Shown: piece by piece, positions 6,426 to 32,054 of the stretch
How the letters are laid out: the number at the start of each line of letters is the position of its first letter
Position numbering within the stretch: position 1 is the first letter of the stretch
DNA from: a virus
Direction: 5' to 3' (one strand)
Virus record (IMG/VR): IMGVR_UViG_3300027969_000045
DNA: 64,000 nucleotides
Made by a program: the position numbers and the translations under genes
The notes under the pieces: model-generated
What the model was told of the DNA's origin: nothing
Database searches by the model: none
What the model saw: only the letters and a program-made list of their open reading frames with translations

Positions 6426-6473
6426 AGGCATTTTAAACTAAAATACATAGTACATACACTAATAAGTTAATTT

Positions 6474-10524: not shown

Positions 10525-10841
10525 TTCAAGCAAATATTGTTGACTTTAAAGCAGGATGGTTTGTTGGGGACTTTGAACCATCTATTTTTAAGAATCCATT
10601 TTTTGAAGTTGCACACCATTCTCACACAAAAGGTCAACAAACTTTTCCTCATTACCATGCAGTCACTAATGAACTTAACTACATTGTAAAAGGTGAACTA
10701 ATAGTATCTGGAAAGCATTTGAATGCAGGTAATATGTGGATCTATGAACCAAAGGAAATTTCTGATGTTGAGTTCTTGAGTGATGTTGATCTTATAGTAG
10801 TGAGATGGCCGTCTATTCCTTCGGATAAGTATATGGTATGA
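10521..10841 (+). CDS. Cupin-domain protein
   Basis: GWFVGDF, HYH...ELNYIVKG. Confidence 0.75.
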   Translation: MIQANIVDFKAGWFVGDFEPSIFKNPFFEVAHHSHTKGQQTFPHYHAVTNELNYIVKGELIVSGKHLNAGNMWIYEPKEISDVEFLSDVDLIVVRWPSIPSDKYMV

Positions 10842-12650: not shown

Positions 12651-12651
12651 C

Positions 12652-13677: not shown

Positions 13678-14603
13678 AGAAAAGGATTGTATTTTGGGTA
13701 GAAAATAAACCATATCAAACTTTTTCTTACATCTATGCTGGAATGAAAAAAGCATTTGAAAGATTGGGTTGTGAAACATATTGGTTTAGTGATTCTAATT
13801 ATCCTTCAAAATTGGAGTTTGATTACTCGGATTGTATTTTTTTTGTAGATAATCAAGGTCCACTTGATTGGAATGTTCCTATTATTGATAGTGGAATTTA
13901 TTTTTCTTATGATAAATTTACAAATCTGGATAAGTATCTTGATAAGGTCAAGTGTCTTGTGAATTATCGAGTTGCTGAATTCAAAAAACCAATTCCGGAT
14001 AATGATAGGTATATTGAAGTTGAAAAAGGAGTTACTTTTGATACTCAAGCACCAGAACCTTATAATGTTGTTTATTTTAGTTGGGCAACTAATTTGCTTC
14101 CTGATGAAATTGATTTTGATTGGGCCAATAAACAGAGAAATGATGAATATAATTTTGTTGGTACTATTCATTCTCCCCGTCCAAATTCCAAACCCCTTCA
14201 TCAAGATTTTATTGATATTGTAAAAAATAAAAATATTACATTCAATCATTATAATCCTAATATTAATCCTGCAACTGATCAGGAACATATTGAGATTCTT
14301 CAAAAATCGATGTTTGTTCCAGATTTTAGACCACAAGAACAAAAAGATAATTGGTATGTTTCATGTCGTGTTTTGAAGGCAATTAGTTATGGTTGTCTTA
14401 CTGTTTCGGATTCTTCTTATCTTAAACACTTTATTGATGATAGTCTTTTGGTTTCTGAAAATGCTCAAGAAATATTTGATCTTGGAATGAGAAATCAGTA
14501 TAATAAAGATTTAATTGTACATCAAATGGAAATTATAAAAAGAGATCATACTTATTTAAATAGGTGCAAAGGTATTCTTCAAATCGTAGAAAATATAAAA
14601 TGA
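13674..14603 (+). CDS. Putative GT-B glycosyltransferase
   Basis: FVGT, R-x-x-x-AISYG and C-terminal HTYLNR motifs, typical of CgeB-like GTs. Confidence 0.6.
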
Positions 14604-15457
14604 AAATTACAATTTTAGGTTCCAGTGGACAGATCGGTGCCTATCTTACCGAGTATCTGCGTAAAAAAGGACATGTAGTTGAAGAGTTTGATGTAGTTAA
14701 TGGACCTTCACAGGATATGACCGTAATTCCTAATCAATATCTTGAAATAAAAATTAGAGATTCTGATTTTGTATTCTTCCTTGCATTTGATGTGGGTGGA
14801 TCACGTTATCTTAAAAAGTATCAACATACTTTCCAGTTCATTGATAATAATACTCGTTTGATGGCAAATGCTTTTGGATTTCTTCAAAAGTATAATAAGA
14901 GGTTCATCTTTGCCTCATCTCAGATGAGTAACATGAGTTATTCTCCTTATGGAGTTCTCAAGAACGTTGGTGAACTGTATACCAAATCACTTAAAGGACT
15001 GATCGTTAAGTTTTGGAATGTTTATGGTATTGAGAAAGATCAAGAAAAAGCACACGTCATCACAGACTTTATTCGTAAAGGATTTGAGACTGGTTTGATT
15101 GATATGCTTACTGATGGCGAAGAGGAACGTGAGTTTCTTTATGCTGAAGATTGTTGTGAAGCACTTGAAACCATTATGGAGAATTATACTGACTTTACCT
15201 CAGAAGATAATCTTCATATTACTAGTTACCATCCAACTAAGATTATTGATATTGCAAATATGATTATTGGGCAATTTAATTTGATTGGTAAGTATGATAT
15301 AAAACTTCAACCATCTACCGAAAAAGATAGTGTTCAGATGGATAAAAAGAATCGTCCAGATTTATATCTTTCTAAGTGGTGGATTCCCAAAACAACAATA
15401 GATCAAGGAATTTCAAAAGTTTTTAAAAGTATGGAGAAAAATTATGTTAGCGTGTAA
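14600..15457 (+). CDS. NAD-dependent epimerase/dehydratase
   Basis: GSSGQIG, YGVLK, NVYG and REFLY; start at ATG 14600. Confidence 0.85.
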   Translation: MKITILGSSGQIGAYLTEYLRKKGHVVEEFDVVNGPSQDMTVIPNQYLEIKIRDSDFVFFLAFDVGGSRYLKKYQHTFQFIDNNTRLMANAFGFLQKYNKRFIFASSQMSNMSYSPYGVLKNVGELYTKSLKGLIVKFWNVYGIEKDQEKAHVITDFIRKGFETGLIDMLTDGEEEREFLYAEDCCEALETIMENYTDFTSEDNLHITSYHPTKIIDIANMIIGQFNLIGKYDIKLQPSTEKDSVQMDKKNRPDLYLSKWWIPKTTIDQGISKVFKSMEKNYVSV

Positions 15458-16286
15458 TCAACTTGGCAATAATGGAAGACTTGGGAATCAAATGTTCCAA
15501 TATGCTGCACTAAAAGGTATCGCACATCGTAGAGGATTTGATTATTGTATTCCCCCATTTGACCAACAAGGAATTGATAATTATGGACTTGGTGATGCCT
15601 TTAATATTAAATCTTTTACTGGTATAGCAAATCTTCCATCAGTTGGAGAACCTCATTTTCATTACAGTGAAGAATTTCACAATACTTGTCCAGATGATGT
15701 TACTCTTGTTGGATATTTCCAAACTGAAAAATATTTCAAAGATATTGAAGACCAAATCCGCCAAGACTTTATTTTTAGAGATGAATGGATGGAACCCTGT
15801 AAGGGGTTTCTTCAAGAGTTTGAGGGACAAGAGATCGCTTTCCTTCATGTTCGCCGTGGAGATCCAAATCTAGTGGATCGTAGGGGATTTAAATGGGCAT
15901 ACGTGAATTGTTCCGATCAACATCCAGTTCAATCTTTGGAATATTATGAGGAGGCAATCAAGAGATTGCCAGAAGATATGCCGATACTTGTTTTTTCTGA
16001 TTCAATTGAATGGTGTAAAGAACAAGAATTCTTTCAACCAGATAGATTTTTATTTTCGGAATCAGAAGACAAATATTCAGATGGCGCTTTGGTTCCATAT
16101 GTTGATTTGTGCTTGATGTCCTTGTGTGATCATGCTATAATTGCTAATAGTAGTATGAGTTGGTGGGGTGCTTGGTTGATGAAAAATCCAAACAAAAAAG
16201 TAATCGCACCAAAAATGTGGTTTGGAACAGCATATTCTCACCACATCACAAAAGACATTTACTGCGATAATTGGGAGATTATTTGA
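15444..16286 (+). CDS. Alpha-1,2-fucosyltransferase-like protein (GT11)
   Basis: GRLGNQMFQYA, GYFQ, HVRRGD, FSD and NSSMSWWGAW motifs. Confidence 0.92.
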   Translation: MLACNQLGNNGRLGNQMFQYAALKGIAHRRGFDYCIPPFDQQGIDNYGLGDAFNIKSFTGIANLPSVGEPHFHYSEEFHNTCPDDVTLVGYFQTEKYFKDIEDQIRQDFIFRDEWMEPCKGFLQEFEGQEIAFLHVRRGDPNLVDRRGFKWAYVNCSDQHPVQSLEYYEEAIKRLPEDMPILVFSDSIEWCKEQEFFQPDRFLFSESEDKYSDGALVPYVDLCLMSLCDHAIIANSSMSWWGAWLMKNPNKKVIAPKMWFGTAYSHHITKDIYCDNWEII

Positions 16287-17113
16287 TGATTTATATTTCT
16301 GGGTCTAATGGATTGATCGGAACAGAACTGACAAAAAATATTCAAAACTATATTCCAATCTCTTATAGGAATCAATATCCAGAAATAAATTTTTTATCGA
16401 ATTCTACATTGATTCATTTATCTTCATCAACCACTCCTAGAAATAGTTTTGGTGAATTGCAATCATCATTTAATAGTGATGTTTTGATTCCTTTTGAATT
16501 GTTTCAAAATTATTTAAAAGTAAATTCAAATGGAAGAATTATTTTTCTTTCTACTGCTGGGGATTTACATAGTTCTGAATTTGATGTTTGGTCTAATGAA
16601 GAATCAGAACCTATTCCAAAGTCAATTTATGGCGCACATAAATTACTTTTAGAACATTGTACAAAGTTACTTCATAGTCAATATGATTTTACGAGTATAG
16701 TTTTAAGAACTACAAATGTTTATGGTGGAAAGATTGACCCAAAAAGAGTGAATGGATTGATTGATAAATTGATTTCAAATAATAATGAAATCGTAATAAC
16801 ATCAAATATTAAAACGACAGTTAATTTTATTCATATTAGTGATTTGATTAGTTTAATTTTGCAATCATTGGATGCGAATCTTAAAGGATTTAATTTATTT
16901 TTGGTTGGCAGTGAAAAATCCATTTCTATTCAGGATTTGATTGAAAAAATATCATCATATATTTCTCCAAATATTGTATTTAAAAATGAGAATTCAAATC
17001 CCTCATACATAAACATAGACACCTCAAAGGTGCAAAAATATCTCAATTGGAAATGCAAATATTCAATTGATAGTGGTATAATTAAACAAGTACAATCTTT
17101 GAATTCTTTATGA
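16286..17113 (+). CDS. NAD-dependent epimerase/reductase (extended SDR)
   Basis: GSNGLIG, YGAHK, NVYG and FIHISD motifs. Confidence 0.8.
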   Translation: MIYISGSNGLIGTELTKNIQNYIPISYRNQYPEINFLSNSTLIHLSSSTTPRNSFGELQSSFNSDVLIPFELFQNYLKVNSNGRIIFLSTAGDLHSSEFDVWSNEESEPIPKSIYGAHKLLLEHCTKLLHSQYDFTSIVLRTTNVYGGKIDPKRVNGLIDKLISNNNEIVITSNIKTTVNFIHISDLISLILQSLDANLKGFNLFLVGSEKSISIQDLIEKISSYISPNIVFKNENSNPSYINIDTSKVQKYLNWKCKYSIDSGIIKQVQSLNSL

Positions 17114-17829
17114 AAATTGCTATTTCATTTTTTGGGACAGGAAGTTATTTGAATTTTCTTCCTAATTGGTATACGTCCATTCATGATAATTTTCTTCCAG
17201 GTGTAGAAAAAAAGTTTATTGTATTTACAGATGGAGAGGGTGATTTTCCAGAAGATGTTACTAAAATAGAAATAGAACATTTTGGGTGGCCTGATGTTTT
17301 TTACAAAACATTTGAAACAATCTTGAAAGCAAAAGAAATTATTTCTGAATGCGATTGGTTTATTTCTATTGATGCGGATATGATTGTTAATGGCAAAGTA
17401 TCTATTGAAGAATTTATTGATGAAACCAAAGATTATATTGGAGTTCATCATCCTTGTGCTTATTTAAAACTTCCACCACACGACAAATATCCAGGATCTT
17501 TTGATGTAAATCCACTATCAAATGCTTACATCACCGAAGATATGGATACTTCTGTTTATTATCAAGGATGTTTATGGGGTGGAAAGGTTCCTGAAATTAT
17601 TGAAATGATGGAACTTTTAGATGAATGGACAAAGAAAGATATTGAAAAGAATTCTACTCCCGTTTGGTATGAAGAATCTTATTTTAATAAGTTTTTTATT
17701 ACAAACAAAGAAAGAGTACATACACTTCCTCCGTCATTTGCTTATCCAGAAGACTTTAAACAATATTGCGATTTTGAAGAAAAAATCACACATATCTCTA
17801 AAAATAATCAACAATATCATAATCAATGA
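17110..17829 (+). CDS. GT6-family glycosyltransferase (ABO/alpha-1,3-Gal(NAc)T-like)
   Basis: GTGSY, FTD, WP, DAD, HP, YYQGCLWGG and W-x-EES-x-x-NKF motifs. Confidence 0.88.
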   Translation: MKIAISFFGTGSYLNFLPNWYTSIHDNFLPGVEKKFIVFTDGEGDFPEDVTKIEIEHFGWPDVFYKTFETILKAKEIISECDWFISIDADMIVNGKVSIEEFIDETKDYIGVHHPCAYLKLPPHDKYPGSFDVNPLSNAYITEDMDTSVYYQGCLWGGKVPEIIEMMELLDEWTKKDIEKNSTPVWYEESYFNKFFITNKERVHTLPPSFAYPEDFKQYCDFEEKITHISKNNQQYHNQ

Positions 17830-18608
17830 CTATGACTAAAAATTTATCAGTTTATTATCATATCTGGAGTCCTGGCGGAACGGATCTTTGGAAATTGATG
17901 GTAGACGAACAACTTAAAAGAATTTATCGCAATGGACTTACGGAAAGTGCTTCTATCTATTGCGCTATTAATGGACCACAAGCAAACCGAATTGCAGAAT
18001 ATATCTCCATCTATGATTGGTTAAATGTTCTTGATGTTTCAATTGATGAAAGTGAGTATGAAGGATTCACTTTAAAGAGAGCATACGAAGAGGCACATTT
18101 CAATCCAGATTTGAAAGCAGTTGCTTATCTTCATACAAAAGGCATTAGTCATATGTGTGGAGTTCGGGATCATTACTCTGATCGTAAGTTTAGAGCAGTG
18201 AATAGTTGGAGACATCAAATGGAATGGGGCATTCTTGATCGGTGGAAAGAAGCGGTAGAAAAACTTGACGAATATCAAGTTTCTGGTGTAAATTATTGTT
18301 TGGATCCTTGGCCTCATATGAGTGGAAACTTTTGGTGGGCACGGGCGGATTATCTTAAAACTTTAATTCATCCCACTAGAGATAGATTTCCAAATGACAA
18401 TAGAGATTTTGGACCAATTCAAAGAATGAATTTTGAAAAATGGATTGGACTGAATAATCCAAAATCTTTCAGTTTTTACGATGCTCCATTTAGTTATGAT
18501 TTTAAAGGAATGACACCAGATGTACAACCAACACCCCCAGGAGAACCGCATTGGTTCTGGTTGTACCGAGACGACATTGAACCCTATTATAGAAAGGAAG
18601 GTAACTGA
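17826..18608 (+). CDS. Putative glycosyltransferase-like protein (YLHTKG family)
   Basis: YEGFTL, YLHTKG, SGNFWWARADY and EKWIG; context in the glycan island. Confidence 0.55.
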   Translation: MTMTKNLSVYYHIWSPGGTDLWKLMVDEQLKRIYRNGLTESASIYCAINGPQANRIAEYISIYDWLNVLDVSIDESEYEGFTLKRAYEEAHFNPDLKAVAYLHTKGISHMCGVRDHYSDRKFRAVNSWRHQMEWGILDRWKEAVEKLDEYQVSGVNYCLDPWPHMSGNFWWARADYLKTLIHPTRDRFPNDNRDFGPIQRMNFEKWIGLNNPKSFSFYDAPFSYDFKGMTPDVQPTPPGEPHWFWLYRDDIEPYYRKEGN

Positions 18609-18609
18609 T

Positions 18610-19332
18610 ATGACTTTTGGATGCTTTCATACAGTGTATGAAAATAAAAGAGCAACAGAGTTTATTTTGCAAGAGTTTAGAAAATATTATCCAGATGCTC
18701 CTTATACTTTGATTTGTGATGGTGGAGTAGATTACTCTGATCTTGCTGTAAAGTACAATTGTAAATATATTCATTCGTATATGCATATTGGCAGAAGAAA
18801 TTCTGGGGATCCTTCTGGAATTTATGGATTCACAAAGGATGAAAGTCTTCATTGGATTCATATGTTTAGGGAGGCAGCAAGACACGTTAAAGAAAATGGT
18901 GGAACACATATGATTATGATGGAAGATGATGTTCTCACTCAAGGTGAAGTGAAAATTAATCCAATTTGGGAATGTGCTGGATTTGATGTTCCGGGAAATA
19001 AAATTTCTCCTGGTCTTTTGAAGTTTATTGAAGAAAAGTATAATGCAAAACCAAATGTTGATTGGTATGGTGCTGGTGGCGGAACCATTTATAATATTGA
19101 AACATTTTTAGATAACTATCATAAAATCTATGATTTTATTGATTTTGATTTTGAAAATATTCTAGAAAATATGGATTATAGATTTGGTTGGTTGGATCTT
19201 TATATGCAAATTGCTTATTTTGTAATTGGTAAACATTATTCAATTAATACAAATTTAACTGAAGTTTGGAAAACACCAAACTTTAGGGATAGTGAATTTA
19301 CTCTTGTTCATGCTTATAAGGAATTATACTGA
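18610..19332 (+). CDS. Putative GT-A fold glycosyltransferase
   Basis: CDGG, MEDDV and GGG motifs; start at ATG 18610. Confidence 0.6.
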   Translation: MTFGCFHTVYENKRATEFILQEFRKYYPDAPYTLICDGGVDYSDLAVKYNCKYIHSYMHIGRRNSGDPSGIYGFTKDESLHWIHMFREAARHVKENGGTHMIMMEDDVLTQGEVKINPIWECAGFDVPGNKISPGLLKFIEEKYNAKPNVDWYGAGGGTIYNIETFLDNYHKIYDFIDFDFENILENMDYRFGWLDLYMQIAYFVIGKHYSINTNLTEVWKTPNFRDSEFTLVHAYKELY

Positions 19333-20309
19333 TGAAAATTGCATTTATTGGACCTGGAATTATGCCCATTCCTCCTGATGGGTGGGGGGCAGTTGAATCT
19401 TTAATCTGGGAAATTGCTTGTGAACTTGGGGAAATGGGTCATAGTGGAACAATTATTAATGATCCAAATTTGAATGAAATTATTAAAACAGTCCAACAAG
19501 ATGAGTACGATTTCATTCATTTATTTTATGATGTTTTTCACCCAATTATGGATGAGATTAAAAGGTTGTGTCCCAAATCTATAACTGCGATTAGTAGTGC
19601 TTATCCTTATGTGGATCAATTTCAATTTCATCAAAGAGATGGATATGATAAAACATATAAGTGGTTGATTGAACAAAAAAATCATTATAATTTTTGTTTG
19701 TCTGATAAAGATTTTGAAACATTTAAAAAGGGTGGAGCAGACGAATCAAAACTTTTGAGACTTGGACTTGGTGCTCAACATAAGAATTTTAAATTTAATA
19801 TTGAATGCGAAAAACCAAATAAAACCCTATATATGGCAAAAATTGAAGTTAGAAAACGTCAATGGGTCTATCAGTCAATTGATAGCATTGAGTTTGTTGG
19901 TAGATATTCTCCCACAACTACATTTGATAAACTTCATAAAAGTTATATTGGAGAGTGGACAACAGAACAAAAACACGAAAATGTAACCAAGTATGCAAAT
20001 TTACTTCTTCTTTCTGATGGTGAAAATGGGACTCCGCTCGTAATTAAAGAGGCACTTGTTTCTGGTATTGGTGTGGTTTGTTCTAAGTATGCTGCTTATG
20101 ATTTGGATCATAGTCTTCCATTTATTACAGTTGTTCCTGATGATAAATTAAATGACTTGAATTATGTGAGTAATGCAATTAAAGAAAATCGTGAAGTATC
20201 TGTGAACATGCGACAGCAAATTCATGAATATGGTGTAAATAATTTTTCTTGGGAGAATATTGTAAAACCTTATATTCAAACTATTGAAAAATTGGAGAGT
20301 GTTCAGTGA
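19332..20309 (+). CDS. GT4-like glycosyltransferase
   Basis: PIPPDGWGAVE, E-x-x-x-PLVIKEAL and FSW motifs. Confidence 0.8.
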   Translation: MKIAFIGPGIMPIPPDGWGAVESLIWEIACELGEMGHSGTIINDPNLNEIIKTVQQDEYDFIHLFYDVFHPIMDEIKRLCPKSITAISSAYPYVDQFQFHQRDGYDKTYKWLIEQKNHYNFCLSDKDFETFKKGGADESKLLRLGLGAQHKNFKFNIECEKPNKTLYMAKIEVRKRQWVYQSIDSIEFVGRYSPTTTFDKLHKSYIGEWTTEQKHENVTKYANLLLLSDGENGTPLVIKEALVSGIGVVCSKYAAYDLDHSLPFITVVPDDKLNDLNYVSNAIKENREVSVNMRQQIHEYGVNNFSWENIVKPYIQTIEKLESVQ

Positions 20310-21259
20310 AAATCTGCATCATTGGTCCTGGATTTTCTCAAATTCCACCAGTTGGTTGGGGTGCTGTTGAAATTGTAATTTGGGATACAGCAAATACGTT
20401 GAAAGAATTAGGACATCAAGTAGATATTATTAATACTACTGATCCCCAACAAATTCTTTCAACAATTAATCAAATTAATCCGGATTTTGTTCACGTTCAT
20501 TATGATGATTATGTCTTCTTGTATCCATATATTCAATTTCCAAAAGCAATTACAACGCATTATGGATATCTAGAAAGACCAGAAATGTATGGTGCTTACT
20601 CATATAAAGCAAATGGATTTGCAAATATCAAACCAAATGTTTTTGCTTTGTCTGATGGTATTAAAAGTATCTATCAAAATCAAATGAGAATTCCGGAACA
20701 AAACTTATATACTGTTCCAAATGGTGTGATTAATGAGAATTTTAAATTTACTAATACACCAGAATTTCCAAATAGATCAATCTACCTAGCAAAAGTAGAT
20801 TACAGAAAGAGGCAGTGTTTATTTCAATCAATATCTTCAATTTATTATGCTGGAAATATTGTAGATGAAAGATTTGATAGAAATAAAAATTATCTTGGGG
20901 AATGGTCAAAAGAAGATTTGTATAATAATTTAACTGATTATGCGAATCTTATTTTACTCTCTGATGGTGAAGCACATCCACTTGTTTGTATGGAAGCACT
21001 CTCTGCTGGATTGGGTCTTGTGATTTCTGAATGGGCAACTGCTAATTTGGATTTAAATAAAGATTTCATTACTGTTATTCCTGAAAGTAAAATTATAGAC
21101 TTGGAATATGTGTCTTTAAAAATTGAAGAAAATAGAACAATATCTTTACAAAAAAGAAATGAAATAGTAGAGTATTCAAAAGAATTTGCTTGGAAAAAAC
21201 AAATTGAAAACTATTATATTCCTGCTGTAAAACAAGTTATGCAAAAATCTAATGGATAA
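20306..21259 (+). CDS. GT4-like glycosyltransferase (paralog of the previous gene)
   Basis: IPPVGWGAVE and LSDGEAHPLVCMEALSAG motifs. Confidence 0.8.
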   Translation: MKICIIGPGFSQIPPVGWGAVEIVIWDTANTLKELGHQVDIINTTDPQQILSTINQINPDFVHVHYDDYVFLYPYIQFPKAITTHYGYLERPEMYGAYSYKANGFANIKPNVFALSDGIKSIYQNQMRIPEQNLYTVPNGVINENFKFTNTPEFPNRSIYLAKVDYRKRQCLFQSISSIYYAGNIVDERFDRNKNYLGEWSKEDLYNNLTDYANLILLSDGEAHPLVCMEALSAGLGLVISEWATANLDLNKDFITVIPESKIIDLEYVSLKIEENRTISLQKRNEIVEYSKEFAWKKQIENYYIPAVKQVMQKSNG

Positions 21260-22049
21260 AAACAAATCTACCTACAAACTTCAAGGAATTGGTCCAATTT
21301 ATTACATTAATCTTGATGGACAACCAGAAAGAAAACAATATGTAGAAGATCAATTTGAGTATTGGGAAATTGAAAATTACACTCGTATTTCTGCTTATGA
21401 TGGTCGTAATGATGATTTAAGTGATATTATATCTGGTCGTTATCCAGATAATATGACTTCTGGTGAGATTGGGTGTGTCACCTCCCACCTTAAAGCAATC
21501 AAGCATTGGTACGAAACAACAGATAGTCCATATGCAATTATTATGGAAGATGATGTTGATCTGCAACTTGTAAAGAATTGGGATTTTTCTTGGAAAGATT
21601 TTTACTCATTGATTCCCTATGATTGGGATGTAGTTCAACTTGCTATTATTTGTACTGGACCTTTACATATCAAACTTCATAAAAGATTTGTAAATAACTT
21701 TTCTACTGCCGCTTATATGATTAATCGGCATCACGCAGAAAAACTTTTAAAGTTTCATATTCGGGGTGATAAGTATAAACTTGATAATGGATGCAAACCA
21801 AGAGCGGTTGCAGATGATCTAGTTTATAATTCTGGAAATACTTATAGTATTCCTTTACTTCTTTATAAAATTCAATTGGGTTCTTCTATTCACCCAGAGC
21901 ACGTTGATATTTTTCACAAATCAAGTCACGATGGTCTCTTAGAATTTTGGCAACAGAAAGGGGCAGGATTGAATATTCGGGAACTGATGGATTATGATCC
22001 TTATCTTGGTAGAATTACTGAAAATGTTCCAGAACAAAGTAACACTTGA
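21252..22049 (+). CDS. GT25-family glycosyltransferase
   Basis: YYINLD...R, AYDG, GEIGCVTSH and MEDDV motifs. Confidence 0.88.
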   Translation: MDKNKSTYKLQGIGPIYYINLDGQPERKQYVEDQFEYWEIENYTRISAYDGRNDDLSDIISGRYPDNMTSGEIGCVTSHLKAIKHWYETTDSPYAIIMEDDVDLQLVKNWDFSWKDFYSLIPYDWDVVQLAIICTGPLHIKLHKRFVNNFSTAAYMINRHHAEKLLKFHIRGDKYKLDNGCKPRAVADDLVYNSGNTYSIPLLLYKIQLGSSIHPEHVDIFHKSSHDGLLEFWQQKGAGLNIRELMDYDPYLGRITENVPEQSNT

Positions 22050-22311: not shown

Positions 22312-22397
22312 TGGGAGAAGCAATCTTTACCATCGCAAGCATTGCCTTCTTTGTGCTTCTTTCACATTCTATCAATCAACTTTCAGAAACTTACTAA
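22311..22397 (+). CDS. Small hydrophobic peptide, 28 aa (MGEAIFTIASIAFFVLLSHSINQLSETY)
   Basis: TAATG overlap with the hli stop codon; fills the gap between the two hli genes. Confidence 0.5.
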   Translation: MGEAIFTIASIAFFVLLSHSINQLSETY

Positions 22398-22410
22398 CGG
22401 AGAAACAAAA

Positions 22411-22530
22411 ATGAAATTCGGATTTACCCCTGAGGCAGAACTTCTTAATTCTCGCCTCGCAATGCTTGGATTTGTAATCGCAGTTGGCACTTATCTCGCC
22501 ACTGGGCAAATTCTGCCTGGAGTATGGTGA
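22411..22530 (+). CDS. hli: High-light-inducible protein (short, 39 aa)
   Basis: MKFGFTPEAELLNSRLAMLGF...TGQILPG; GGAG ribosome-binding site upstream. Confidence 0.92.
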   Translation: MKFGFTPEAELLNSRLAMLGFVIAVGTYLATGQILPGVW

Positions 22531-22690: not shown

Positions 22691-22724
22691 TTGACAGGAC
22701 CCAGGGACCGTGCTATGATAAATA
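22691..22724 (+). promoter_or_regulatory. psbA promoter: sigma70 type with an overlapping late-like ATAAATA
   Basis: TTGACA-17 nt-TATGAT followed directly by AAATA. Confidence 0.8.
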
Positions 22725-22759
22725 AGTCAGGAAACGAAGACAAATCTTTACGTTTCTTA

Positions 22760-22872
22760 ACCTTCTGTAACCGAGATCATCAGAAGTAAAGCGTCTCTCA
22801 TATCCGTACTGGAGGGTGGTACGGAAATAACTGTAACATTCAGTTCCCCCTGAATTCTTATTTACCCTTTAA
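22760..22872 (+). ncRNA. Structured psbA 5' leader, likely PhotoRC-II-type cis-regulatory RNA
   Basis: Hairpins CTTCTG/CAGAAG, TCCGTACT-GGAGGGT-GGTACGGA and ATTCAG/CTGAAT; PhotoRC-II RNAs are known upstream of cyanophage psbA. Confidence 0.6.
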
Positions 22873-22878
22873 CGAAAA

Positions 22879-23958
22879 ATGACTGCTACAATTGCTACAC
22901 GTTCTGATAATAATGTCTGGGAACAGTTTTGTTCTTGGATTACTTCTACCGACAACCGTCTTTATGTTGGTTGGTTCGGTGTTCTACTTATTCCAACAGT
23001 TTTAACTGCAACCATCTGCTTTATTCTTGCTTTTATTGCGGCACCTCCAACAGATCTGGACGGAATTAGGGAAGCAGTATCTGGTTCTCTAATGTATGGC
23101 AATAACATTATTAGTGCTTCAGTAATTCCTAGTTCTAATGCCATAGGATTGCATCTATACCCAATTTGGGAAGCACAATCTCTGGAAGAATGGCTATACA
23201 ATGGAGGCGAATATCAACTTATTGTTTTCCATTTTATGATTGCAATTTATGCTTATATGGGTCGTGAATGGGAACTTTCATATAGGTTGTCAATGCGCCC
23301 TTGGATTTGTGTTGCTTATAGTGCTCCTGTTGCTGCTGCTACTGCTATCTTTCTTGCTTATCCAATTTCACAAGGTTCATTTTCTGATGGATTTCCTTTG
23401 GGAATTTCGGGCCAATTTAATTTTATGTTAGTCTTTCAGGCAGAGCATAATATTCTTATGAATCCGTTTCATATGTTAGGTGTTGCTGGTGTTTTTGGTG
23501 GCGCTTTAGTTTCTGCCACTCACGGATCACTCGTAACAAGTTCTCTTGTGAGAGAAACTACTGAGGAGGAAAGTCAAAATAAAGGATATAAATTTGGTCA
23601 AGAACAAGAAACTTATAATTTAGTTGCCGCACACGGGTATCTGGGTCGTCTTCTGTTTCAATATGCATCCTTTAATAATAGTCGTTCATTGCACTTTGTG
23701 ATGGCTGCACTACCTGTTATTGGTATTTGGTTTGCTGCTTGTGGAATTTTTATGTCTGGTTTTAATCTCAACGGACTAAATTTCAACCAAAGTATCTTAG
23801 ATCATCAGGGGCGTGTTGTTCCTACTTGGGCGGACGTATTGAACCGGGCAAATCTTGGTCTAGAAACTATTCATGAACGCAATAGTCATCAGTTTCCATT
23901 AGATTTGGCATTTTCTTCTGGTTCTGAAGTTGCACTTGTTGCACCTTCAGTTGGTTGA
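22879..23958 (+). CDS. psbA: Photosystem II D1 protein, strongly divergent
   Basis: Colinear with D1; D61, Y161, D170, E189, H190, H198, H215, H252, S264, H272, H332, E333, H337, D342 and A344 are all present; no intron. Confidence 0.97.
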
Positions 23959-23998: not shown

Positions 23999-24024
23999 AA
24001 GAGGAAGGAAACTTCCTCTTTTTT
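23999..24024 (+). terminator. Rho-independent terminator after psbA
   Basis: AAGAGGAAG-GAAA-CTTCCTCTT plus T-run. Confidence 0.85.
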
Positions 24025-24039: not shown

Positions 24040-24750
24040 ATGGACACTATATACGAACAATTTATTTCATATTTAAAGGAAAAGGAAAAAAATATATCTG
24101 GATATGTTGAAAAGCATAGGATTATTCCGGGACATTCTGGTGGAAAATATATTGATAATAATATAGTATTAGTCTCTTTTCCAGAACATTGTTTGGCGCA
24201 TTTTTACCGATATTTAGCATATGGAAATTCTATTGACTTATATGCCTATCATAAAATGGTAGGAGATACAGTAGAAGCGAGAATATCTAGGTCAAAATCG
24301 GGTGGAGAAGCAGCAAAAAATATTAAAGTTGGATGTTTTAAAGATTATAAATGTAGGGAAGATACTTTAATAAACCCAGGAAGAAGTGCATATTATAATA
24401 AGGATATACAATCGTCTAATGGCAAAAAAAGAAAGAAACAACTTACAGAAGAAGATTTTTTTTCTTCTGAAAATCAAAAAGTTCGCGGTAAAAAAGGAGC
24501 AGAAGTTAATAGAAAAAATGGTACTGGAGCATTTGACTCAAAAAATTTAGAGAAGGCAAGAAAAAAACAAAAAGAAATGGGAATTGGTGTTCATAATAAG
24601 TTGTTTCAAAAATCTATGGCATTTAGAAGATGGGGTGCGGTACTTGATGGTAAAAGATTATTTTATGATTTGGATATGAGAACTACTCTATCGGAAACTT
24701 TTGTCGATTATCATCTTAATTATGGATTAATTAATAATTACTCTAACTAA
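24040..24750 (+). CDS. Free-standing HNH-type homing endonuclease downstream of psbA
   Basis: EKHRIIPGHSGG..NNIV..EHCLAH HNH module; basic C-terminal DNA-binding-like region; same position as the psbA-targeting endonuclease F-CphI of S-PM2. Confidence 0.8.
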   Translation: MDTIYEQFISYLKEKEKNISGYVEKHRIIPGHSGGKYIDNNIVLVSFPEHCLAHFYRYLAYGNSIDLYAYHKMVGDTVEARISRSKSGGEAAKNIKVGCFKDYKCREDTLINPGRSAYYNKDIQSSNGKKRKKQLTEEDFFSSENQKVRGKKGAEVNRKNGTGAFDSKNLEKARKKQKEMGIGVHNKLFQKSMAFRRWGAVLDGKRLFYDLDMRTTLSETFVDYHLNYGLINNYSN

Positions 24751-25413: not shown

Positions 25414-25421
25414 TTTTTGAA

Positions 25422-25458
25422 AGACCCTCTTGTGGGGTCTCATTTTTTGTGCTATAAT
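25422..25458 (+). terminator. Terminator hairpin fused to an extended -10 promoter
   Basis: AGACCCT...GGGGTCT, T-run, then TGCTATAAT. Confidence 0.65.
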
Positions 25459-25490
25459 AAATAAATCATAAGACGAAAAATAGTTCATAA

Positions 25491-27740
25491 GTGGCACTCA
25501 GAAAACCATCAGATATTTTTGATAAAAAAATTGAAGATATTAACATTCCAGTTGTTGAGTCTGATAGTTCTTTGTATCTTGAGTTAAGTAAAGTAGAAAG
25601 TTTATCAGAACAAGTATCTCAATTACAACAAGAACTATCGCAAAAAGTAATTCAAACTGATCTTGAGAAGTTAGTTCTATCTCAGATCAATTCAATGCGG
25701 GAGAATTTCAATTACCTGCAAAATGACTTTAAGAAATCAAATAAAAAAGATATTTCTGAATTTAAAGATAAAGTATCACAACTTACGGAGATTGTTGGTA
25801 ATCTCATAGAAGAAGAAATACCAAAATACAAAAAACAAGTCACCAAAAATGAAGTTCGTATTGGTGAAAAGTTTGATACTCTTAAAGAAGTAGTAGAAGA
25901 AAATATTGTTGATATTAGAGGTGAGATAGACACTCAAGTTAACAATATTGCCGAAGTAATTGATAATAATCTAGAGTATTTTAACAATCAACTTCAAGAA
26001 ACTTCTTCTAAAGTAAAAGACACTACCGATACTTATAATAAACTTTCTAAAATTTTAGAAAGTAAACTAGTAAAGGAAAATGAGAAGTTAGAAGAATACT
26101 CACAGATTATTCAATCTCTTCACGAAGAATTTGTAGAACTTCAATCATTACTAGAAGAAAAGACCTCTTCTTATGATCAAGTAATTCAAGAAAAGTTTGG
26201 GGATATTTCTTCAGATATAAACAAAAAAATTCGTAGTATTGATGAAGAAGTAGATACCTTTAAGAATAAAGTATCTTCAGATATAAACAAAAAAATTAGT
26301 AGTATTGATGAAGAAGTAGATACCTTTAAGAATAAAGTATCTTCAGAAATTTCAAATATCAAAGCAGATGTTGTTATTAACGAACAGCATATTAAGAATG
26401 TAGATAAGTATCTAAAAGAAAATCATTCAGAACTTATAGAACTCAAAGAAGAAGTTTTTGGTGAGATTGAAAAATTACCTATTGGAAATCTTCAAGAAAA
26501 TTTAGAAAGACTTGAAAAGAAAATTGATTTTATCAAAGAAACTTATTCTCGAATTGAACCTGAAGTTATTGTAAAGGAAGTTATCCGAGAAGGACTATTA
26601 AATGAACCTCCAGATACAAAGAACTCTGATCCTCTTACTCCATTAGATCAGAAGTTTGTAACACTAGAACAACTACAAGAACATTATCGTCTGTTCATTA
26701 ATCGTATTCAACAACAACTCTCCACATTAGGTGGAGGTGGTGAAACTAGATTAAGATATCTTGATGATATTGTTGGTATTGCCACAAATGCAAGTGCTTA
26801 TGATGGAAAGTTTCTTAAGTATAATCACAGTATAGGGAAATTTGAATTTGATGCAGTCTCTGGTGGTGGTGATTATGCAAGTGTTGCTGGTATAGCAACC
26901 TATGCAATAACAGCAGGTATAGCAACCTATGCAACTTATAGTGGTATAGCAACAACTGCGACTTATCTAGCAGATGCTGCAAATATTATAACCGGAGTTA
27001 TTGATAGAAATAGAATAAACACAACTAGTGCTCTTTCTGTTGTTGGTGACTTGTATGTGAGTGGCAATATCTCATTTGGAGGAACAACTGCTCAACTCAA
27101 TACCGAACAACTTCAGATTGCTGATAGTGATATTATATTAGGTATTGGAACTTCTTTTAGTCCAACGGATAATACTGCAAATCATGGTGGTATTGCGATT
27201 GCATCTACCGAAGGAACACCATTAGTAAATCTCAATATTATTCCATCAGAAATACTTCCACCCACATATAAGAAGATTATGTGGTTCAAAGGAAATACAA
27301 TTGGTGCCGGAATTACAGATGCCTGGTTATTTAATTATGGCGTTGGTATTGGTTCTACACAAGTTCCAAATGGAGTTCGTTTGGCGGTTGGTGGTGTTCA
27401 TATCACTGATACTACTATTTCGGCAAATTCTTATAATGGTAGGGGAACTAATCTAACCGGAATTGTAACTTCTATTATTGCCGGAACTGGAATGACGGTA
27501 ACTTCTTCTACGGGGCAAGTTACGGTTTCTTCCATATATCCTGTTCTCAAAAATCCAGTTTTTACTTATACTAGTGGAGTTCTTACGAGCATCCTATATA
27601 GTGATGGGTCAACAAAAACATTTACTTATACGTCTGGGACATTGACTAGAATTGATTTAGTTGTTGGAAGTAGAACTTACAGAAAAACTTTCAATTATAC
27701 AAGTGGTATTTTGACATCTATTACGGAGACTGAGTTTTAA
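25491..27740 (+). CDS. Large virion/fibre-associated protein: coiled-coil N-terminus, GIAT-repeat fibre-like C-terminus
   Basis: Heptad-rich N-terminal half; GGGGETRLRYLDD linker; AGIATYA repeats; three C-terminal FxYTSGxLTxI repeats. Confidence 0.7.
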   Translation: MALRKPSDIFDKKIEDINIPVVESDSSLYLELSKVESLSEQVSQLQQELSQKVIQTDLEKLVLSQINSMRENFNYLQNDFKKSNKKDISEFKDKVSQLTEIVGNLIEEEIPKYKKQVTKNEVRIGEKFDTLKEVVEENIVDIRGEIDTQVNNIAEVIDNNLEYFNNQLQETSSKVKDTTDTYNKLSKILESKLVKENEKLEEYSQIIQSLHEEFVELQSLLEEKTSSYDQVIQEKFGDISSDINKKIRSIDEEVDTFKNKVSSDINKKISSIDEEVDTFKNKVSSEISNIKADVVINEQHIKNVDKYLKENHSELIELKEEVFGEIEKLPIGNLQENLERLEKKIDFIKETYSRIEPEVIVKEVIREGLLNEPPDTKNSDPLTPLDQKFVTLEQLQEHYRLFINRIQQQLSTLGGGGETRLRYLDDIVGIATNASAYDGKFLKYNHSIGKFEFDAVSGGGDYASVAGIATYAITAGIATYATYSGIATTATYLADAANIITGVIDRNRINTTSALSVVGDLYVSGNISFGGTTAQLNTEQLQIADSDIILGIGTSFSPTDNTANHGGIAIASTEGTPLVNLNIIPSEILPPTYKKIMWFKGNTIGAGITDAWLFNYGVGIGSTQVPNGVRLAVGGVHITDTTISANSYNGRGTNLTGIVTSIIAGTGMTVTSSTGQVTVSSIYPVLKNPVFTYTSGVLTSILYSDGSTKTFTYTSGTLTRIDLVVGSRTYRKTFNYTSGILTSITETEF
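26208..26346 (+). repeat. In-frame 66-bp tandem duplication (22 aa)
   Basis: SSDINKKIRSIDEEVDTFKNKV / SSDINKKISSIDEEVDTFKNKV; the copies differ at one base. Confidence 0.9.
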
Positions 27741-27808
27741 ATTTATGAAAAAAACGAAGATAATTATGATCAATAAATATAGTATATTCTTGGGAGAAGT
27801 GATCTGAT

Positions 27809-30800
27809 ATGGCAATTGTCAACGTCGCGTCAAGCCAGAACCTTACGGCGGTCACCTACGCGCAAGACGACATCATCAACGTGAACGATGGCGTTACTCT
27901 CACGATTAACTCTCAGTGGTCGATTAAGCCAAGACTGATTCAGGCGCTTGGCACTGGTCGTATTGAGGTTAGCAACACCAGCACTAGCGTTGCTCATCTG
28001 CAAGAGTTTTTCATGGGTGCTGGCGGAAACTCTGGCGGCATCAGTGTTACGCAGAATGGTGTGTTTCAAGTAAGGGGCGCATGGATTACCGTAGGCACCT
28101 CCACAGGCACAAATAATGAAACACTGTTTAGCGCAAACTCTGTCGGCGGCGTAGCACTTGACTACCCTACTCACATTGAAGTCGAAACAGGTAGCGGCAC
28201 AAACGTCTGGGAAGTTTGGCAGGCGCTTCCACTAGACGTAACTGGCGGAGTAGTCAACACACTTGGGTTCAACGGAAATAACGCCACTGCTGGAACGGTT
28301 GCAGTAACAACTGCGGGCGTAGTAACGGGCACGGGCACCAATTTTGTGACCACAAACGCAGGTCAATTTTTCAAACTTCCTAGCATCACCCGTGACTTTG
28401 TTGTTGGCTCCTACACTTCTGCCACATCAATCATCATCCAGGAACTAGATGGTTCTACCTATACAGGTGGTGTGATTGCCGCAGGAACGTCGTATATTCT
28501 TCGCAGTGGTTCACTTATCAGCGCCACTCAAGTAGGCAGCGGTGACATTGGCAAGGTGTTGTTCTTTAACCCATTGACCACTGCGGTAACAATGGGAGAT
28601 GGCACCAACGGCACAAAGATTCCCACAGGCGCCCGAGTTCGTGTTCCTAATATTCATTTTAATTCCGCTGTTCAGCAAACAACGCTTGCAGCAGCCATTA
28701 CAAGTACAGCAGCGCAGGCCATCACGCTTACAGCAGCAATAGGGGCGGGAACAAACAGTGCTTCTGCAACGGGATATTTTGGCACATTGCTATTGGTCAA
28801 CGGTTCAACTATTGAACGCATTTCATACACTACACGCTCGGGCACAACGGTCAGCGCAACAGGTATGTTCAGGGGCGCTCTTGGAACTACAGCGCAAGCG
28901 AGCTTTCCAATCGGCACATCGGTCTATTGGATTCCAGCGAATAACACTACCACCAATAACGCCACATTTACAACCAACGCATCAGGCACGGTTGATATGC
29001 AGGTGTGCAGCACTGGCTTAAGAATGTGCTGTACGTTTAACAACTATGCAGCTCTAACATTAAAAAACTTTGGCGCCTATTTCTTGACGGTCACAAGCTC
29101 TGCTGGGACATACAGCCTAGATACCATTAGTGCAACTGGCGGCGGCTATCAAGCTCCGGGGGGTGCGGCGGCTGTAATTTCATTTGCTTCTATGATCGGC
29201 AGCGGAAGTTTTGCCAATATCCATGCAAATGTCAACTATACTTTGGCCACTAATGCTACAGGGCTTACATTCTCTAACGTCCAAAACGCGCAAGCAATAA
29301 GCAATGTGCGAGTGAGGATGTATAACCGATCATCCAGTACCAACTTCAACACTAGGTCAATCGCATTTTCAACCGTCAAGTGCGCCACACCTATCGACGG
29401 CATCTACGCTAACTTCACTATCTATACCACTGCACTAACCAACGCAGACATTAAAAATATCTACATATCGTCGCAGCCTGGTAGCTACTCCGCTGGCACT
29501 AGCGACACTGCCGTTGTGCTGTATCTAACCAGCACAGTCAACAGTACCTTCCGTGGCATCCAAATTTGGGATGGCGGCCTTGCCCACCGTAACTACATAG
29601 CCTTGATTAACTCGGATTGTGAAAGTGTTGTAGTTCACAATAAAGGCTACCCCGCAATCAACGGTGGATCACAACTCGCTGCAATCTCCAACGACGCCGG
29701 ACTAAACAGCATCATCGCGTGGATTTCAGTTACAAGCCCTCGCATTACAACGACTCAAAGCTACCTTACAAGTAACGTCACAAGTAACAGCGGTCGCCTA
29801 TTTCGGATGCTGCTGATTGACTCAATCACAGCCACCACGACATCCACTGGTGGCGCAATGAAAGGCGGAGTAGAGCTTGACATGCTGGCAGGCCCCCATC
29901 GTTTTTACTCTTCTACTGCTACAGCCTCCATCGTCCCCAATCTGGTGGACGTTCAACCCATCGTCGTCCTATCCAATACTGCAAAAACCGTTGGCTCCGT
30001 CTACGTCGGCCCGTTCTCAGCACAGAACAGCTTTGATATGTACGCCTTTACAGGTGGCACCTACCTAGACAACCTGGGCCGCATCTACTACCAGACCACA
30101 GGCGATTCAATTATCGTCAAGTCTGCGTTTGCGCTCAAAGGGTTTACAAACTTCACAGGCACAGCGTTTGATTTTAACTACAACTTGGGCTCAGGCACCA
30201 ACCCCATTCCCGCTGGCACGACTGTCGAGTTCCGCATGGTGAACTGGGGCACGGCAAACACAGGCGCCTGGATTGCGTTCACCGATAACTCCAGTTTGGA
30301 GACTACTAGGGCTGCATTGACAGGGTACAGTTCAAGCGTTGGTCTTGACTTGCAACTACGCATTACTGCCACGACAACAGTGGCAGGGCGTTACTTGATG
30401 AGCATGAAGCTGCCCGTCACCATTGACGCAGCATATAATCCTCCTGTATCCGAAACGCAAATCGGATTTACTGGTGCTCAAATTGGTACTTTAATTGCTG
30501 GCTACCTAAATGCAGACCCAAATAACCCTGCTCTGCAAAGCAGCCTGACCTTGACGGGCACCAGTGGTTCCGTACCAATGCCTTATGACTACGATGCCGT
30601 TCCAGTGGCCTACAGACTGATTGCTCGATTGGCAGGCTGGACATTTAGCAACCTTACAGGCACCTACCTCAAGGAAAACATTTCTATTCCGATTACGCAG
30701 ACAAGAGTTAATGATTTGAACGGCAATGCTCTATACACGTCAGGTGTTACAGGCGTGACGGTTAATTATGGTGCATCAACAATCACACTATCCGCAAGTC

Positions 30801-31972
30801 GATCGGCAGTGCAAGTTTGGTCGGCAGTGCAGGATAACCTTTCCCTGCTAGCAAACCTAACTCGCCCTGATCCATTCGCCACCACTAACGGATTGTCATT
30901 TGTTAGCACTTACACACTAGTTGTAACAGGCACATTGTCAGCGGGTAACGTGATTGGTAACGTCACGCTATCGGGCAGTTTATCAAGCGGCGTAACAATC
31001 ACTGGTAATGTGGCACAAGCAACGCCTACAAACTTAACAGGCGTGATAATCAATGGTAATTTAACTTACAACACAAACACACCAATAACTGTAACACTAA
31101 CCAACTGTAATGTTACAGGAACGATAAGTAATAGTGGAAGTGGGTTGGTAAAAGTAGTCAAATCTGGTACAACTTCGTGGCTTACCGCAGGTTCTAATGT
31201 CTCCGTGATCGTCAACGTAACTATTACAACTCCTGGTGGTCTTGCGCTCTCCACTTACATAATCAAAAATGGTGCCACAGACCTGGGATGGGTTGCCACC
31301 AATGCTGCTCGTGCATTAGAAATTCAAGAAACAGATACATTCTCAATCTATGCCATCGCATATGGATATAAGGCTAAACTTGTGAGTGCTAATGCTTTGG
31401 ATTTGGCGACATTTCAGTTTGATCTATTGCCAGAGATATATGTTGATACAACGTTATCAACAGTAACAAGAGACTTTATTGCCTCTAAGTTCAGCACGTC
31501 TATGGATGCTTTTAGTCATATTGCGCTGTCTTTGAATTACGATCTGCGCTCTTATACCCCAGACGATGTATTGAATGCAATTCAATACTTTATTGTAACG
31601 CAAGGTGATCTTATTGCGGCGGGAGTTGTTTATGGTGGTTCTATTGATGGAGTGGAGATTATTGAAGGTGGTATTATTATTGGTACGCCAGGTTTCTATG
31701 GGAAGGTCGCAGATTCGGTTACGACAACAAGTGACTTAGGAATCCTTGTTCCCCTCTATATTGAAGTTCTTGCCTCAGTATATATTACAGACCCGACATA
31801 TTCACCTATACGAAAAAATACATCTGGGATTATTTTACAATATGCTCCGTGGACAAAACAAACCGCAGACATTAGTTCTACTGATATCTCTAGTATTCGA
31901 GATGGTCTAGCAACTGAGGTAAATGTAAATGTGGTAAAAACAAATACAAATCTTATTCCCGGATTGTTCTAA
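27809..31972 (+). CDS. 1387-aa Thr/Gly/Ser-rich beta-strand protein (putative receptor-binding, tail-associated or adhesin); GC-rich
   Basis: Long ORF; beta-helix-like composition; base composition and codon usage clearly differ from the flanks. Confidence 0.7.
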   Translation: MAIVNVASSQNLTAVTYAQDDIINVNDGVTLTINSQWSIKPRLIQALGTGRIEVSNTSTSVAHLQEFFMGAGGNSGGISVTQNGVFQVRGAWITVGTSTGTNNETLFSANSVGGVALDYPTHIEVETGSGTNVWEVWQALPLDVTGGVVNTLGFNGNNATAGTVAVTTAGVVTGTGTNFVTTNAGQFFKLPSITRDFVVGSYTSATSIIIQELDGSTYTGGVIAAGTSYILRSGSLISATQVGSGDIGKVLFFNPLTTAVTMGDGTNGTKIPTGARVRVPNIHFNSAVQQTTLAAAITSTAAQAITLTAAIGAGTNSASATGYFGTLLLVNGSTIERISYTTRSGTTVSATGMFRGALGTTAQASFPIGTSVYWIPANNTTTNNATFTTNASGTVDMQVCSTGLRMCCTFNNYAALTLKNFGAYFLTVTSSAGTYSLDTISATGGGYQAPGGAAAVISFASMIGSGSFANIHANVNYTLATNATGLTFSNVQNAQAISNVRVRMYNRSSSTNFNTRSIAFSTVKCATPIDGIYANFTIYTTALTNADIKNIYISSQPGSYSAGTSDTAVVLYLTSTVNSTFRGIQIWDGGLAHRNYIALINSDCESVVVHNKGYPAINGGSQLAAISNDAGLNSIIAWISVTSPRITTTQSYLTSNVTSNSGRLFRMLLIDSITATTTSTGGAMKGGVELDMLAGPHRFYSSTATASIVPNLVDVQPIVVLSNTAKTVGSVYVGPFSAQNSFDMYAFTGGTYLDNLGRIYYQTTGDSIIVKSAFALKGFTNFTGTAFDFNYNLGSGTNPIPAGTTVEFRMVNWGTANTGAWIAFTDNSSLETTRAALTGYSSSVGLDLQLRITATTTVAGRYLMSMKLPVTIDAAYNPPVSETQIGFTGAQIGTLIAGYLNADPNNPALQSSLTLTGTSGSVPMPYDYDAVPVAYRLIARLAGWTFSNLTGTYLKENISIPITQTRVNDLNGNALYTSGVTGVTVNYGASTITLSASRSAVQVWSAVQDNLSLLANLTRPDPFATTNGLSFVSTYTLVVTGTLSAGNVIGNVTLSGSLSSGVTITGNVAQATPTNLTGVIINGNLTYNTNTPITVTLTNCNVTGTISNSGSGLVKVVKSGTTSWLTAGSNVSVIVNVTITTPGGLALSTYIIKNGATDLGWVATNAARALEIQETDTFSIYAIAYGYKAKLVSANALDLATFQFDLLPEIYVDTTLSTVTRDFIASKFSTSMDAFSHIALSLNYDLRSYTPDDVLNAIQYFIVTQGDLIAAGVVYGGSIDGVEIIEGGIIIGTPGFYGKVADSVTTTSDLGILVPLYIEVLASVYITDPTYSPIRKNTSGIILQYAPWTKQTADISSTDISSIRDGLATEVNVNVVKTNTNLIPGLF

Positions 31973-31999
31973 ATTAATTTTAGTTCCGAAACTGACACA

Positions 32000-32035
32000 G
32001 AGACCCCTTGCAGGGTCTCTTTTTTGTGCTATAAT
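32000..32035 (+). terminator. Terminator hairpin fused to an extended -10 promoter
   Basis: GAGACCC...GGGTCTC, T-run, then TGCTATAAT. Confidence 0.7.
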
Positions 32036-32054
32036 ACGGGAAACACACAGACGT

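Follow-up and report, generated by a model that had tools for sequence, protein, structure and literature searches.

The psbA gene carried by a 64,000-nucleotide stretch of viral DNA (IMG/VR record IMGVR_UViG_3300027969_000045; the whole stretch is called the window here) encodes a complete, divergent D1 protein of photosystem II (PSII). D1 is among the most conserved proteins known, and M172, T179, F255 and their neighbours are a staple of PSII mutagenesis. We consider it reasonably probable that this psbA is a functional phage gene belonging to a virus-only lineage, in which the QB niche and the ChlD1 pocket have been rebuilt, the donor side has been left untouched and the allele travels as a mobile cassette. 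Judged from its sequence, the window D1 appears to be a real, functional-looking and environmentally widespread variant of known phage D1. The gene is an uninterrupted open reading frame (ORF) of 359 codons, and its product scores 675.4 bits against the TIGR01151 psbA equivalog model (cut-off 596) and matches PF00124 with an E value of 3.9e-88. Against solved D1 chains the alignment is gapless, with the best match to Thermosynechococcus PsbA3 (7yq7_A, residues 1–358, E 1e-194), and the window numbering is therefore the standard D1 numbering.

The window D1 keeps the Mn4CaO5 ligands D170, E189, H332, E333, D342 and A344, the second-sphere residues D61, E65 and H337, the YZ pair Y161/H190, the P680 ligand H198, the non-haem iron ligands H215 and H272, and S264 at the QB site. 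This set of residues of a water-oxidising D1 is retained in the window and in every member of the clade to which it belongs, and E130, the D1:2 or high-light type of residue, is likewise present throughout. An earlier, sequence-only reading of this DNA had reported the catalytic ligands, YZ/H190, H198, H215, H272, S264 and E130 as kept, and had listed 30 substitutions together with F345; the alignment confirms every one of these.

The degree of departure was scored against 129 D1 representatives from outside the clade (cellular, viral and other metagenomic sequences, clustered at 95%). Of the 205 positions conserved at 95% or more in that set, 14 are altered in the window (L41V, V58T, P66A, L120M, G122A, G138S, V157I, G164S, T179Q, M214T, I248L, F255L, I259L and L275M), against a median of 1 for other D1s. 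The only other D1s that reach or exceed this score are the rogue forms, each with 38, members of the clade, and L046, a sister viral sequence with 18. By this measure the protein is plainly atypical, but the earlier claim that dozens of near-invariant residues are changed is overstated, as several of the supposedly canonical residues are polymorphic. Among 132 D1s, position 93 is F in 67 and L in 61, position 80 is A in 35, position 286 is A in 50, L occupies position 300 in 24 and N position 195 in 16, and M at 328 is the minority residue. F93L, G80A, T286A, M328L, F300L and H195N are common in phage and picocyanobacterial D1.

The changes that set the clade apart include V58T, P66A and P111E, shared by all of its members, and a clade-wide block in helix D, the DE loop and helix E that consists of F211V/I, M214T, I248L, F255L, I259L, F274V, L275M and W278L. 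The conserved hydrophobic QB niche comprises F211, L218, F255, F265, L271, F274 and L275, with H215, S264 and F265 as hydrogen-bond partners of QB and with herbicides making contact at M214 (PMC8398153). In fragment-orbital calculations, stacking on F255 and F265 accounts for the largest share of QB head binding, and F211 contacts the tail (PMC4030317). Five of ten QB-niche residues named in the literature fall among the 14 clade-wide changes (Fisher p 1e-5, a post hoc test). Within the niche the window retains H215, L218, V219, A251, S264, F265 and L271, so the hydrogen-bonding residues are unchanged.

A similar loss of aromatic residues is seen in D1 types that are not close relatives. Six rogue D1s from five cyanobacterial genomes, which lack Mn ligands and S264, carry F211L, usually M214L, F255L, I259L and W278L/F/V, with F211L, F255L, I259L and W278L each present in 5–6 of the six. 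The sequence-only reading had set the window apart from rogue D1; the separation holds for the protein as a whole, but not for the niche, where rogue D1s and some Nostocales paralogs share F211L/V/I, F255L, F274V/L and W278L with it. Recombination with a rogue or atypical D1 was considered as a source of the QB set and rejected: the window segment 201–285 is 66–67% identical to rogue D1 versus 84–86% to standard D1, and is no closer to rogue D1 than the remainder of the protein is. From these comparisons the QB set appears to be a convergence on an alternative, aliphatic state of the niche, not a product of recombination. The two sets of changes can also be separated in nature, as one metagenomic protein (P0014) is a mosaic with a canonical 211–278 block that is otherwise of the clade type.

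The second set of changes belongs to a sub-clade of ten that includes the window and adds A81S, V157I, G164S, M172F, T179Q, L288C, S291F, T292M, M293S and A294G. Four of these, V157I, G164S, M172F and T179Q, lie in the ChlD1 pocket of the window, where no compensating Met is found at position 173. Combined quantum-mechanical and molecular-mechanical (QM/MM) calculations single out M172 and T179 as the two D1 residues that lower the ChlD1 excitation energy, by 10 and 4 meV, and, as D1/D2 pairs, as stabilising ChlD1+ by 52 and 90 meV (PMC7368266). A T179H mutant with shifted ChlD1 Qy band and triplet signals is cited in PMC10498673. The earlier proposal that the changes sit at the QB niche and at ChlD1 is thus borne out by the residues named in this literature (PMC8398153, PMC4030317 and PMC7368266), and retuned energetics or inhibitor resistance are the biophysical consequences that we infer from residue identity. 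The Q179 motif occurs in 14 IMG/VR contigs, versus T179 in at least 120. Three of the 14 (L274, L277 and L279; 75–79% identical to the window) are otherwise canonical, including at positions 157, 164 and 172 and in the QB niche. V58T is found as well in L277 and L279, both of which the free tree puts outside the clade. An independent origin of T179Q was therefore considered, and recurrence is not established: a single origin is not rejected against the free tree by the approximately unbiased (AU) test (p 0.25; difference in log-likelihood 29.8).

The clade comprises 15 representatives and has a support of 99 in both FastTree (146 rows) and IQ-TREE (74 rows), each tree being rooted on rogue D1. 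It is nested in a wider group that has no cellular members, itself within the picocyanobacterial-type branch of standard G4 D1. The picocyanobacterial-plus-phage group that holds the window has supports of 99 and 97, and the G3-like (D1') and rogue forms lie outside it; in both trees the window falls inside G4. Clade members are 80–97% identical to the window (97, 92, 91, 90, 87, 84 and 80–82% among metagenomic proteins and IMG/VR contigs) and are found on viral or metagenomic contigs only, mostly from lakes. Where flanks are available, the gene content is phage-like in all clade contigs examined, and one member shares with the window a gene order that runs through glycosyltransferases, psbA, endonuclease, metallophosphatase and HNH genes to speD. 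No isolate phage D1 exceeds 77.7% identity to the window, and no cellular D1 exceeds 79%, either among the best 80 of 585 loci in species-representative prokaryote genomes or in 81 picocyanobacterial genomes. Most of the sequences from a search of protein representatives were fragments or frameshifted D1s, and the search brought no information on atypical forms. The sequence-only reading had proposed a viral D1 class. What stands is a distinct, conserved lineage restricted to viruses and metagenomes; what does not is a class beside G0–G4, as the lineage nests among G4 phage D1s and is best read as a derived phage branch of ordinary D1. That reading had also named, among the findings that would count against it, that the changes are common among freshwater phage D1s, and they are indeed shared by an entire group of D1s from lake phages.

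Freshwater or lake metagenome runs from some ten or more studies contain near-identical DNA, as does a single run with a marine label. The latter (X9, 'marine metagenome') yields exact contigs of the psbA allele and the adjacent endonuclease region, such as 23469–23827 with zero differences, so that the range of the lineage may extend into brackish or coastal water. In a lake metatranscriptome library, three contigs of 165–174 nt match psbA exactly, which is weakly consistent with transcription of the gene. In the contig data, RNA run X19 shows no cover outside psbA, and run X20 matches a portion of the endonuclease gene, with lower identity.

Selection on the gene was assessed from pairwise ratios of nonsynonymous to synonymous substitution rates (dN/dS), which within the clade are 0.05–0.11 for pairs with unsaturated dS (0.29–1.26); a host pair gives 0.14. 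The closest relative of the window, a metagenomic protein (P0010), is a mosaic allele that is identical at residues 41–359 and 77.5% identical at 1–40, and its dN/dS of 0.27 arises because the differences are confined to the first 40 residues. The clade ratios lie far from the value near 1 that had been suggested as a sign of decay; the window gene is not decaying, and its D1 is a natural variant that merits testing. An unlikely account that nevertheless deserves weight is that the divergence is functionally near-neutral: psbA would be a long-resident, fast-evolving phage gene, subject to AT pressure and to the relaxed constraint of a few hours' use, with no meaningful phenotype. Consistent with this, the GC content at third codon positions (GC3) of the window psbA is 0.23, the lowest of the genes compared (0.38 in the nearest phage relative, G001; 0.23–0.41 in the clade; 0.83–0.91 in host D1 genes), Gly and Pro have been lost (P66A, P111E, G122A, G138S and G164S), the changes are mostly conservative, and sister viral clades show graded, partly overlapping changes (H195N, M293S, A294S and W278L). 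However, the clade ratios indicate constraint as strong as in hosts, the changes are concentrated at named cofactor-lining residues, and the recurrence of the QB set in unrelated D1 types argues for a selected alternative state. Pure AT mutational bias was rejected, as FYMINK residues (Phe, Tyr, Met, Ile, Asn and Lys) are not enriched in the window (96 versus 104 and 99) and G001, similarly AT-rich, keeps the canonical residues. AT bias probably lies behind some of the Gly and Pro losses, and not behind the cofactor-centred pattern.

The genomic setting of psbA suggests that the allele is mobile. G001 is collinear with the window, with 88–97% nucleotide identity on both psbA flanks, whereas identity in psbA drops to 74% for the DNA and 77% for the protein, and the D1 of G001 falls in another viral group. 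The endonuclease-like gene that adjoins psbA in the window has no aligned counterpart in G001, and the pattern looks like a cassette swap relative to G001 beside a homing endonuclease. In Synechococcus phage S-CBWM1, psbA intron 1 is inserted after codon 218, within the QB-coding region, and encodes an endonuclease to which the product of the window gene aligns over 95% of its length with 31% identity. The gene found next to psbA in the window also lies 3' of psbA in the three closest alleles (L090, L002 and L003, 94–99.6% identity), and in another clade member a GIY-YIG enzyme is found there instead. In the lineage and its sister clade psbA is interrupted after codons ~92, ~185 and ~333 (L077:2618–2854, L069:3890–4194, L281 ~10494–11379 and L007 ~4002–4212), and those in L077 and L069 are group I introns according to Rfam (110.6 and 87.3 bits). 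Taken together, psbA here appears to be a cassette that phages exchange, sited in a hot spot for selfish elements.

This setting may help the allele to spread, but it cannot account for some 40 conserved replacements. A more far-reaching version, in which the allele hitch-hikes with endonucleases and introns and its changes near target sites (for example codons 211–218) shield it from cleavage, seems to us improbable. It would draw on the homology to the S-CBWM1 enzyme, the recurrence of endonucleases 3' of psbA, the interruptions within the clade, the swap relative to G001 and the mosaics P0014 and P0010. Yet the target of the endonuclease is only putative, immunity usually needs few and often synonymous changes rather than some 40 scattered replacements or those around ChlD1, and three alleles that lack this endonuclease (L004, L006 and L008) keep the same QB set.

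Phage psbA is generally derived from hosts and the clade lies within the picocyanobacterial-type group, so phages could in principle have captured the allele recently from a freshwater cyanobacterial lineage not yet sampled, whose biology would then account for the oddities of this D1. We regard this as very improbable in view of the 79% ceiling among cellular D1s in the genome scans, the viral context of every clade contig examined and a clade GC3 that indicates long residence in AT-rich phage genomes. To the idea of a non-oxygenic or regulatory D1 that switches PSII off, like rogue or sentinel D1 or ChlF, we give almost no credence: the niche is partly rogue-like at positions 211, 255, 259 and 278, but the window keeps the Mn4CaO5 ligands, S264, Y262 and F265 and is placed in G4, whereas the six rogue D1s have lost D170, E189, E333, D342 or S264, and the identity of segment 201–285 to them is low, as given above.

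We therefore return to a working, selected phage D1 as the explanation we favour. The gene would be a working auxiliary gene of an uncultivated freshwater T4-like cyanomyovirus, and its D1 would replace the host D1 in the PSII of infected cells. Such a role would require assembly with D2, CP43 and CP47 and the evolution of oxygen, and is supported indirectly by the purifying selection and by the exact contigs in the RNA library. Neither the window, G001 (70 kb) nor the clade contigs of 125, 91.6, 91.4, 48.5 and 48.5 kb, all of them partial genomes, yielded a psbD, and because of this the viral D1 probably pairs with a host D2. The lineage would have descended from a picocyanobacterial-type G4 D1 through a burst of change followed by purifying selection. 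The donor side (Mn4CaO5 ligands, YZ/H190 and P680 H198) is untouched; the QB niche and ChlD1 pocket are rebuilt. In the niche, loss of aromatic and bulky side chains through F211V, M214T, I248L, F255L, I259L, F274V, L275M and W278L is expected to weaken stacking on the quinone head, and so to alter the affinity for QB or inhibitors, the exchange rate or the redox poise. At ChlD1, the site energy and the stability of ChlD1+ would shift, and the changes in both pockets, together with E130, may alter how charge separation and recombination are balanced in infected cells. Related phages would exchange the allele as a cassette, at a locus rich in homing endonucleases and group I introns. A bolder proposal, that lake cyanophages install a D1 that deliberately changes PSII energetics, with M172 and T179 replaced together, the QB lining made aliphatic and water oxidation kept, is one that we put forward tentatively, as possible and somewhat doubtful.

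Several points weigh against this explanation. Most of the substitutions are conservative hydrophobic swaps, and the energetic effects are all read from residue identity. The gene is strongly adapted to an AT-rich phage genome, with fewer Gly and Pro, and mutational bias and long phage residence explain part of its divergence. The contigs behind the absence of psbD are partial genomes, and the cellular comparison, which covers the best 80 of 585 loci, leaves some room for a cellular source. The RNA evidence consists of short contigs from one library, in which DNA carry-over is possible.

The lineage offers a natural, selected and environmentally widespread combination of D1 changes on a water-oxidising background, and natural mosaics such as the protein with the canonical 211–278 block separate its QB set from its ChlD1 set. 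On the bolder proposal, the aliphatic QB niche, recurring in rogue D1 and in some Nostocales paralogs, would represent an alternative state of the acceptor side that is general and open to selection; quinone might bind faster or more weakly, recombination might take other routes, and inhibitors of the QB site might lose their effect. Such a state would be exploited by the virus while it shuts down host carbon fixation. psbA also appears to behave as an exchangeable cassette among closely related freshwater phages. This raises the questions of how far the tuning of ChlD1 and QB can shift without loss of function, what a phage gains from a D1 unlike that of its host, and whether lake picocyanobacteria with a viral D1 differ in photophysiology or in their sensitivity to herbicides.

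The window is a T4-like cyanomyovirus by its gene content, which includes a gp32-like single-stranded-DNA-binding protein, gp5-like and gp48-like proteins (baseplate hub and tail-tube cap), tail fibres, speD, hli and a large glycosyltransferase island. Judged by a conserved tail protein, its nearest isolates are large Synechococcus myoviruses, and identity to any isolate is no more than 45%. An hli gene adjoining psbA is usual in cyanomyoviruses. The features around psbA are listed in Table 1; the PhotoRC-II motif also lies upstream of psbA in the related viral loci L007, L069 and L077. The T4-like genes, hli, speD, PhotoRC-II RNA and adjacent homing endonuclease are those expected of a cyanophage psbA auxiliary metabolic gene, and the sequence-only reading was right to call the D1 viral.

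Table 1 Features of the psbA locus in the window.
Feature	Coordinates	Strand	Remarks
hli (small high-light-inducible protein)	22342..22530	+	62-aa ORF upstream of psbA; Pfam Chloroa_b-bind 22.4 bits vs cut-off 22.3, borderline
Sigma-70-like promoter candidate for psbA	22691..22719	+	TTGACA-17-TATGAT with TG extension, 11/12 positions; consensus match only
PhotoRC-II RNA motif, psbA leader	22748..22838	+	Rfam RF01717, 60.4 bits vs gathering score 39, E 5e-9
psbA (divergent, complete D1; P0001)	22879..23958	+	359 aa; mature 1–344 plus 15-residue C-terminal extension
Terminator-like hairpin 3' of psbA	23999..24020	+	9-bp stem, then T run; consensus match only
Free-standing homing-endonuclease-like gene adjoining psbA	24040..24750	+	phrog_655 homing endonuclease, E 1e-8

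Other parts of the window differ from G001 to varying degrees. Between psbA and the metallophosphatase gene, the region 25417–32053 holds two large genes (a 749-aa tail-fibre-like product and a 1387-aa product without a family match) with a GC content of 0.45–0.49 versus about 0.32 around it; nothing in G001, which is otherwise collinear, aligns to this region, and the equivalents of 25416 and 32054 lie side by side there. Upstream of psbA, a long run of nucleotide-sugar and glycosyltransferase genes spans 5002–22049, with PHROG glycosyl- or glucosyltransferase matches at 19332–22049. The run is mostly kept in G001, at about 89% from 14590 onward, and 8168–14589 is without an aligned counterpart. 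Conversely, about 2.6 kb of G001 (C1 ~52149–54750), between the glycosyltransferase/hli region and the psbA leader, is not present in the window. The 3' part (62893–63998) of an open-ended 950-aa ORF at 61149–63998 gives many staggered matches of 65–85% to several places in G001, which indicates an internally repetitive, fibre- or decoration-like protein. The window also carries tRNA-Gly(GCC) and tRNA-Ile (anticodon TAT), at 1752–1823 and 4331–4403.

Several known D1 types resemble the window in part. The microaerobic-type D1' (G3; Thermosynechococcus PsbA2 and Synechocystis PsbA1) shares A80 and A286 with it, and residue 172 is changed in both (M172L in PsbA2, PMC7368266). The window nevertheless keeps F158, where G3-like forms have L158, has no P173M and is excluded from G3 by the tree. 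D1' is marked by G80A, F158L and T286A together, and the sequence-only reading had named G80A and T286A as two of its three hallmarks; a link to D1' does not hold, as F158 is kept and both changes are common in phage and picocyanobacterial D1. Rogue or sentinel D1 (G1/G2) shares the de-aromatised QB niche; it is 63–64% identical to the window overall and lacks Mn ligands and S264, and an assignment to these groups or to ChlF (G0) was rejected on the retained ligands. Far-red D1, marked by Tyr120 with Thr155 (PMC9740203), was also rejected: the window has M120 and T155, and T155 is usual in standard D1 too.

The form D1INT is marked by Trp126 and Trp260, according to PMC9740203, citing Sheridan et al. 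2020, and with Y126 and F260 the window does not belong to it. Four cellular paralogs from Nodularia, Nostoc and Chroococcales (P0053, P0073, P0082 and L126) have intact ligands, Q130 and W260, and carry F211V/I, F255L, I259F, F274V and W278L, an alternative configuration of the QB niche that is possibly related to D1INT. As far as the D1INT/W260 paralogs of Nostocales and Chroococcales are described (Sheridan et al. 2020, via PMC9740203 and PMC12096807), they are like the window in being G4-derived, with ligands intact and acceptor-side contact residues changed, and they share F211V/I, F255L, F274V and W278L with it. They differ in being 76–77% identical to the window and placed elsewhere in the tree, and the window adds M214T, I248L, I259L, L275M and the ChlD1 set.

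Among viral sequences, a global study of freshwater viromes found that almost half of freshwater viral PsbA forms a clade without a RefSeq reference (Elbehery and Deng 2022, PMC9554406). That clade, for which a tree was given but neither residues nor cofactors were analysed, probably reflects the same phenomenon as the window lineage or includes it, a likeness drawn from the description and not from sequences. A 2026 preprint on cyanophage D1 and D2 mentions none of the positions discussed here, and no residue-level description of the lineage was found in the literature searched. A close known system is the standard cyanophage D1 (of T4-like cyanomyoviruses such as S-PM2, Syn1, S-RIM44 and S-CREM1), which is likewise of G4 type, with intact ligands, E130, hli, PhotoRC-II and endonucleases or introns at the locus, and whose presumed role is to replace host D1 during infection. 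The window D1 is at most 77.7% identical to that of any isolate phage and differs in its rebuilt QB and ChlD1 pockets and in its lake habitat.

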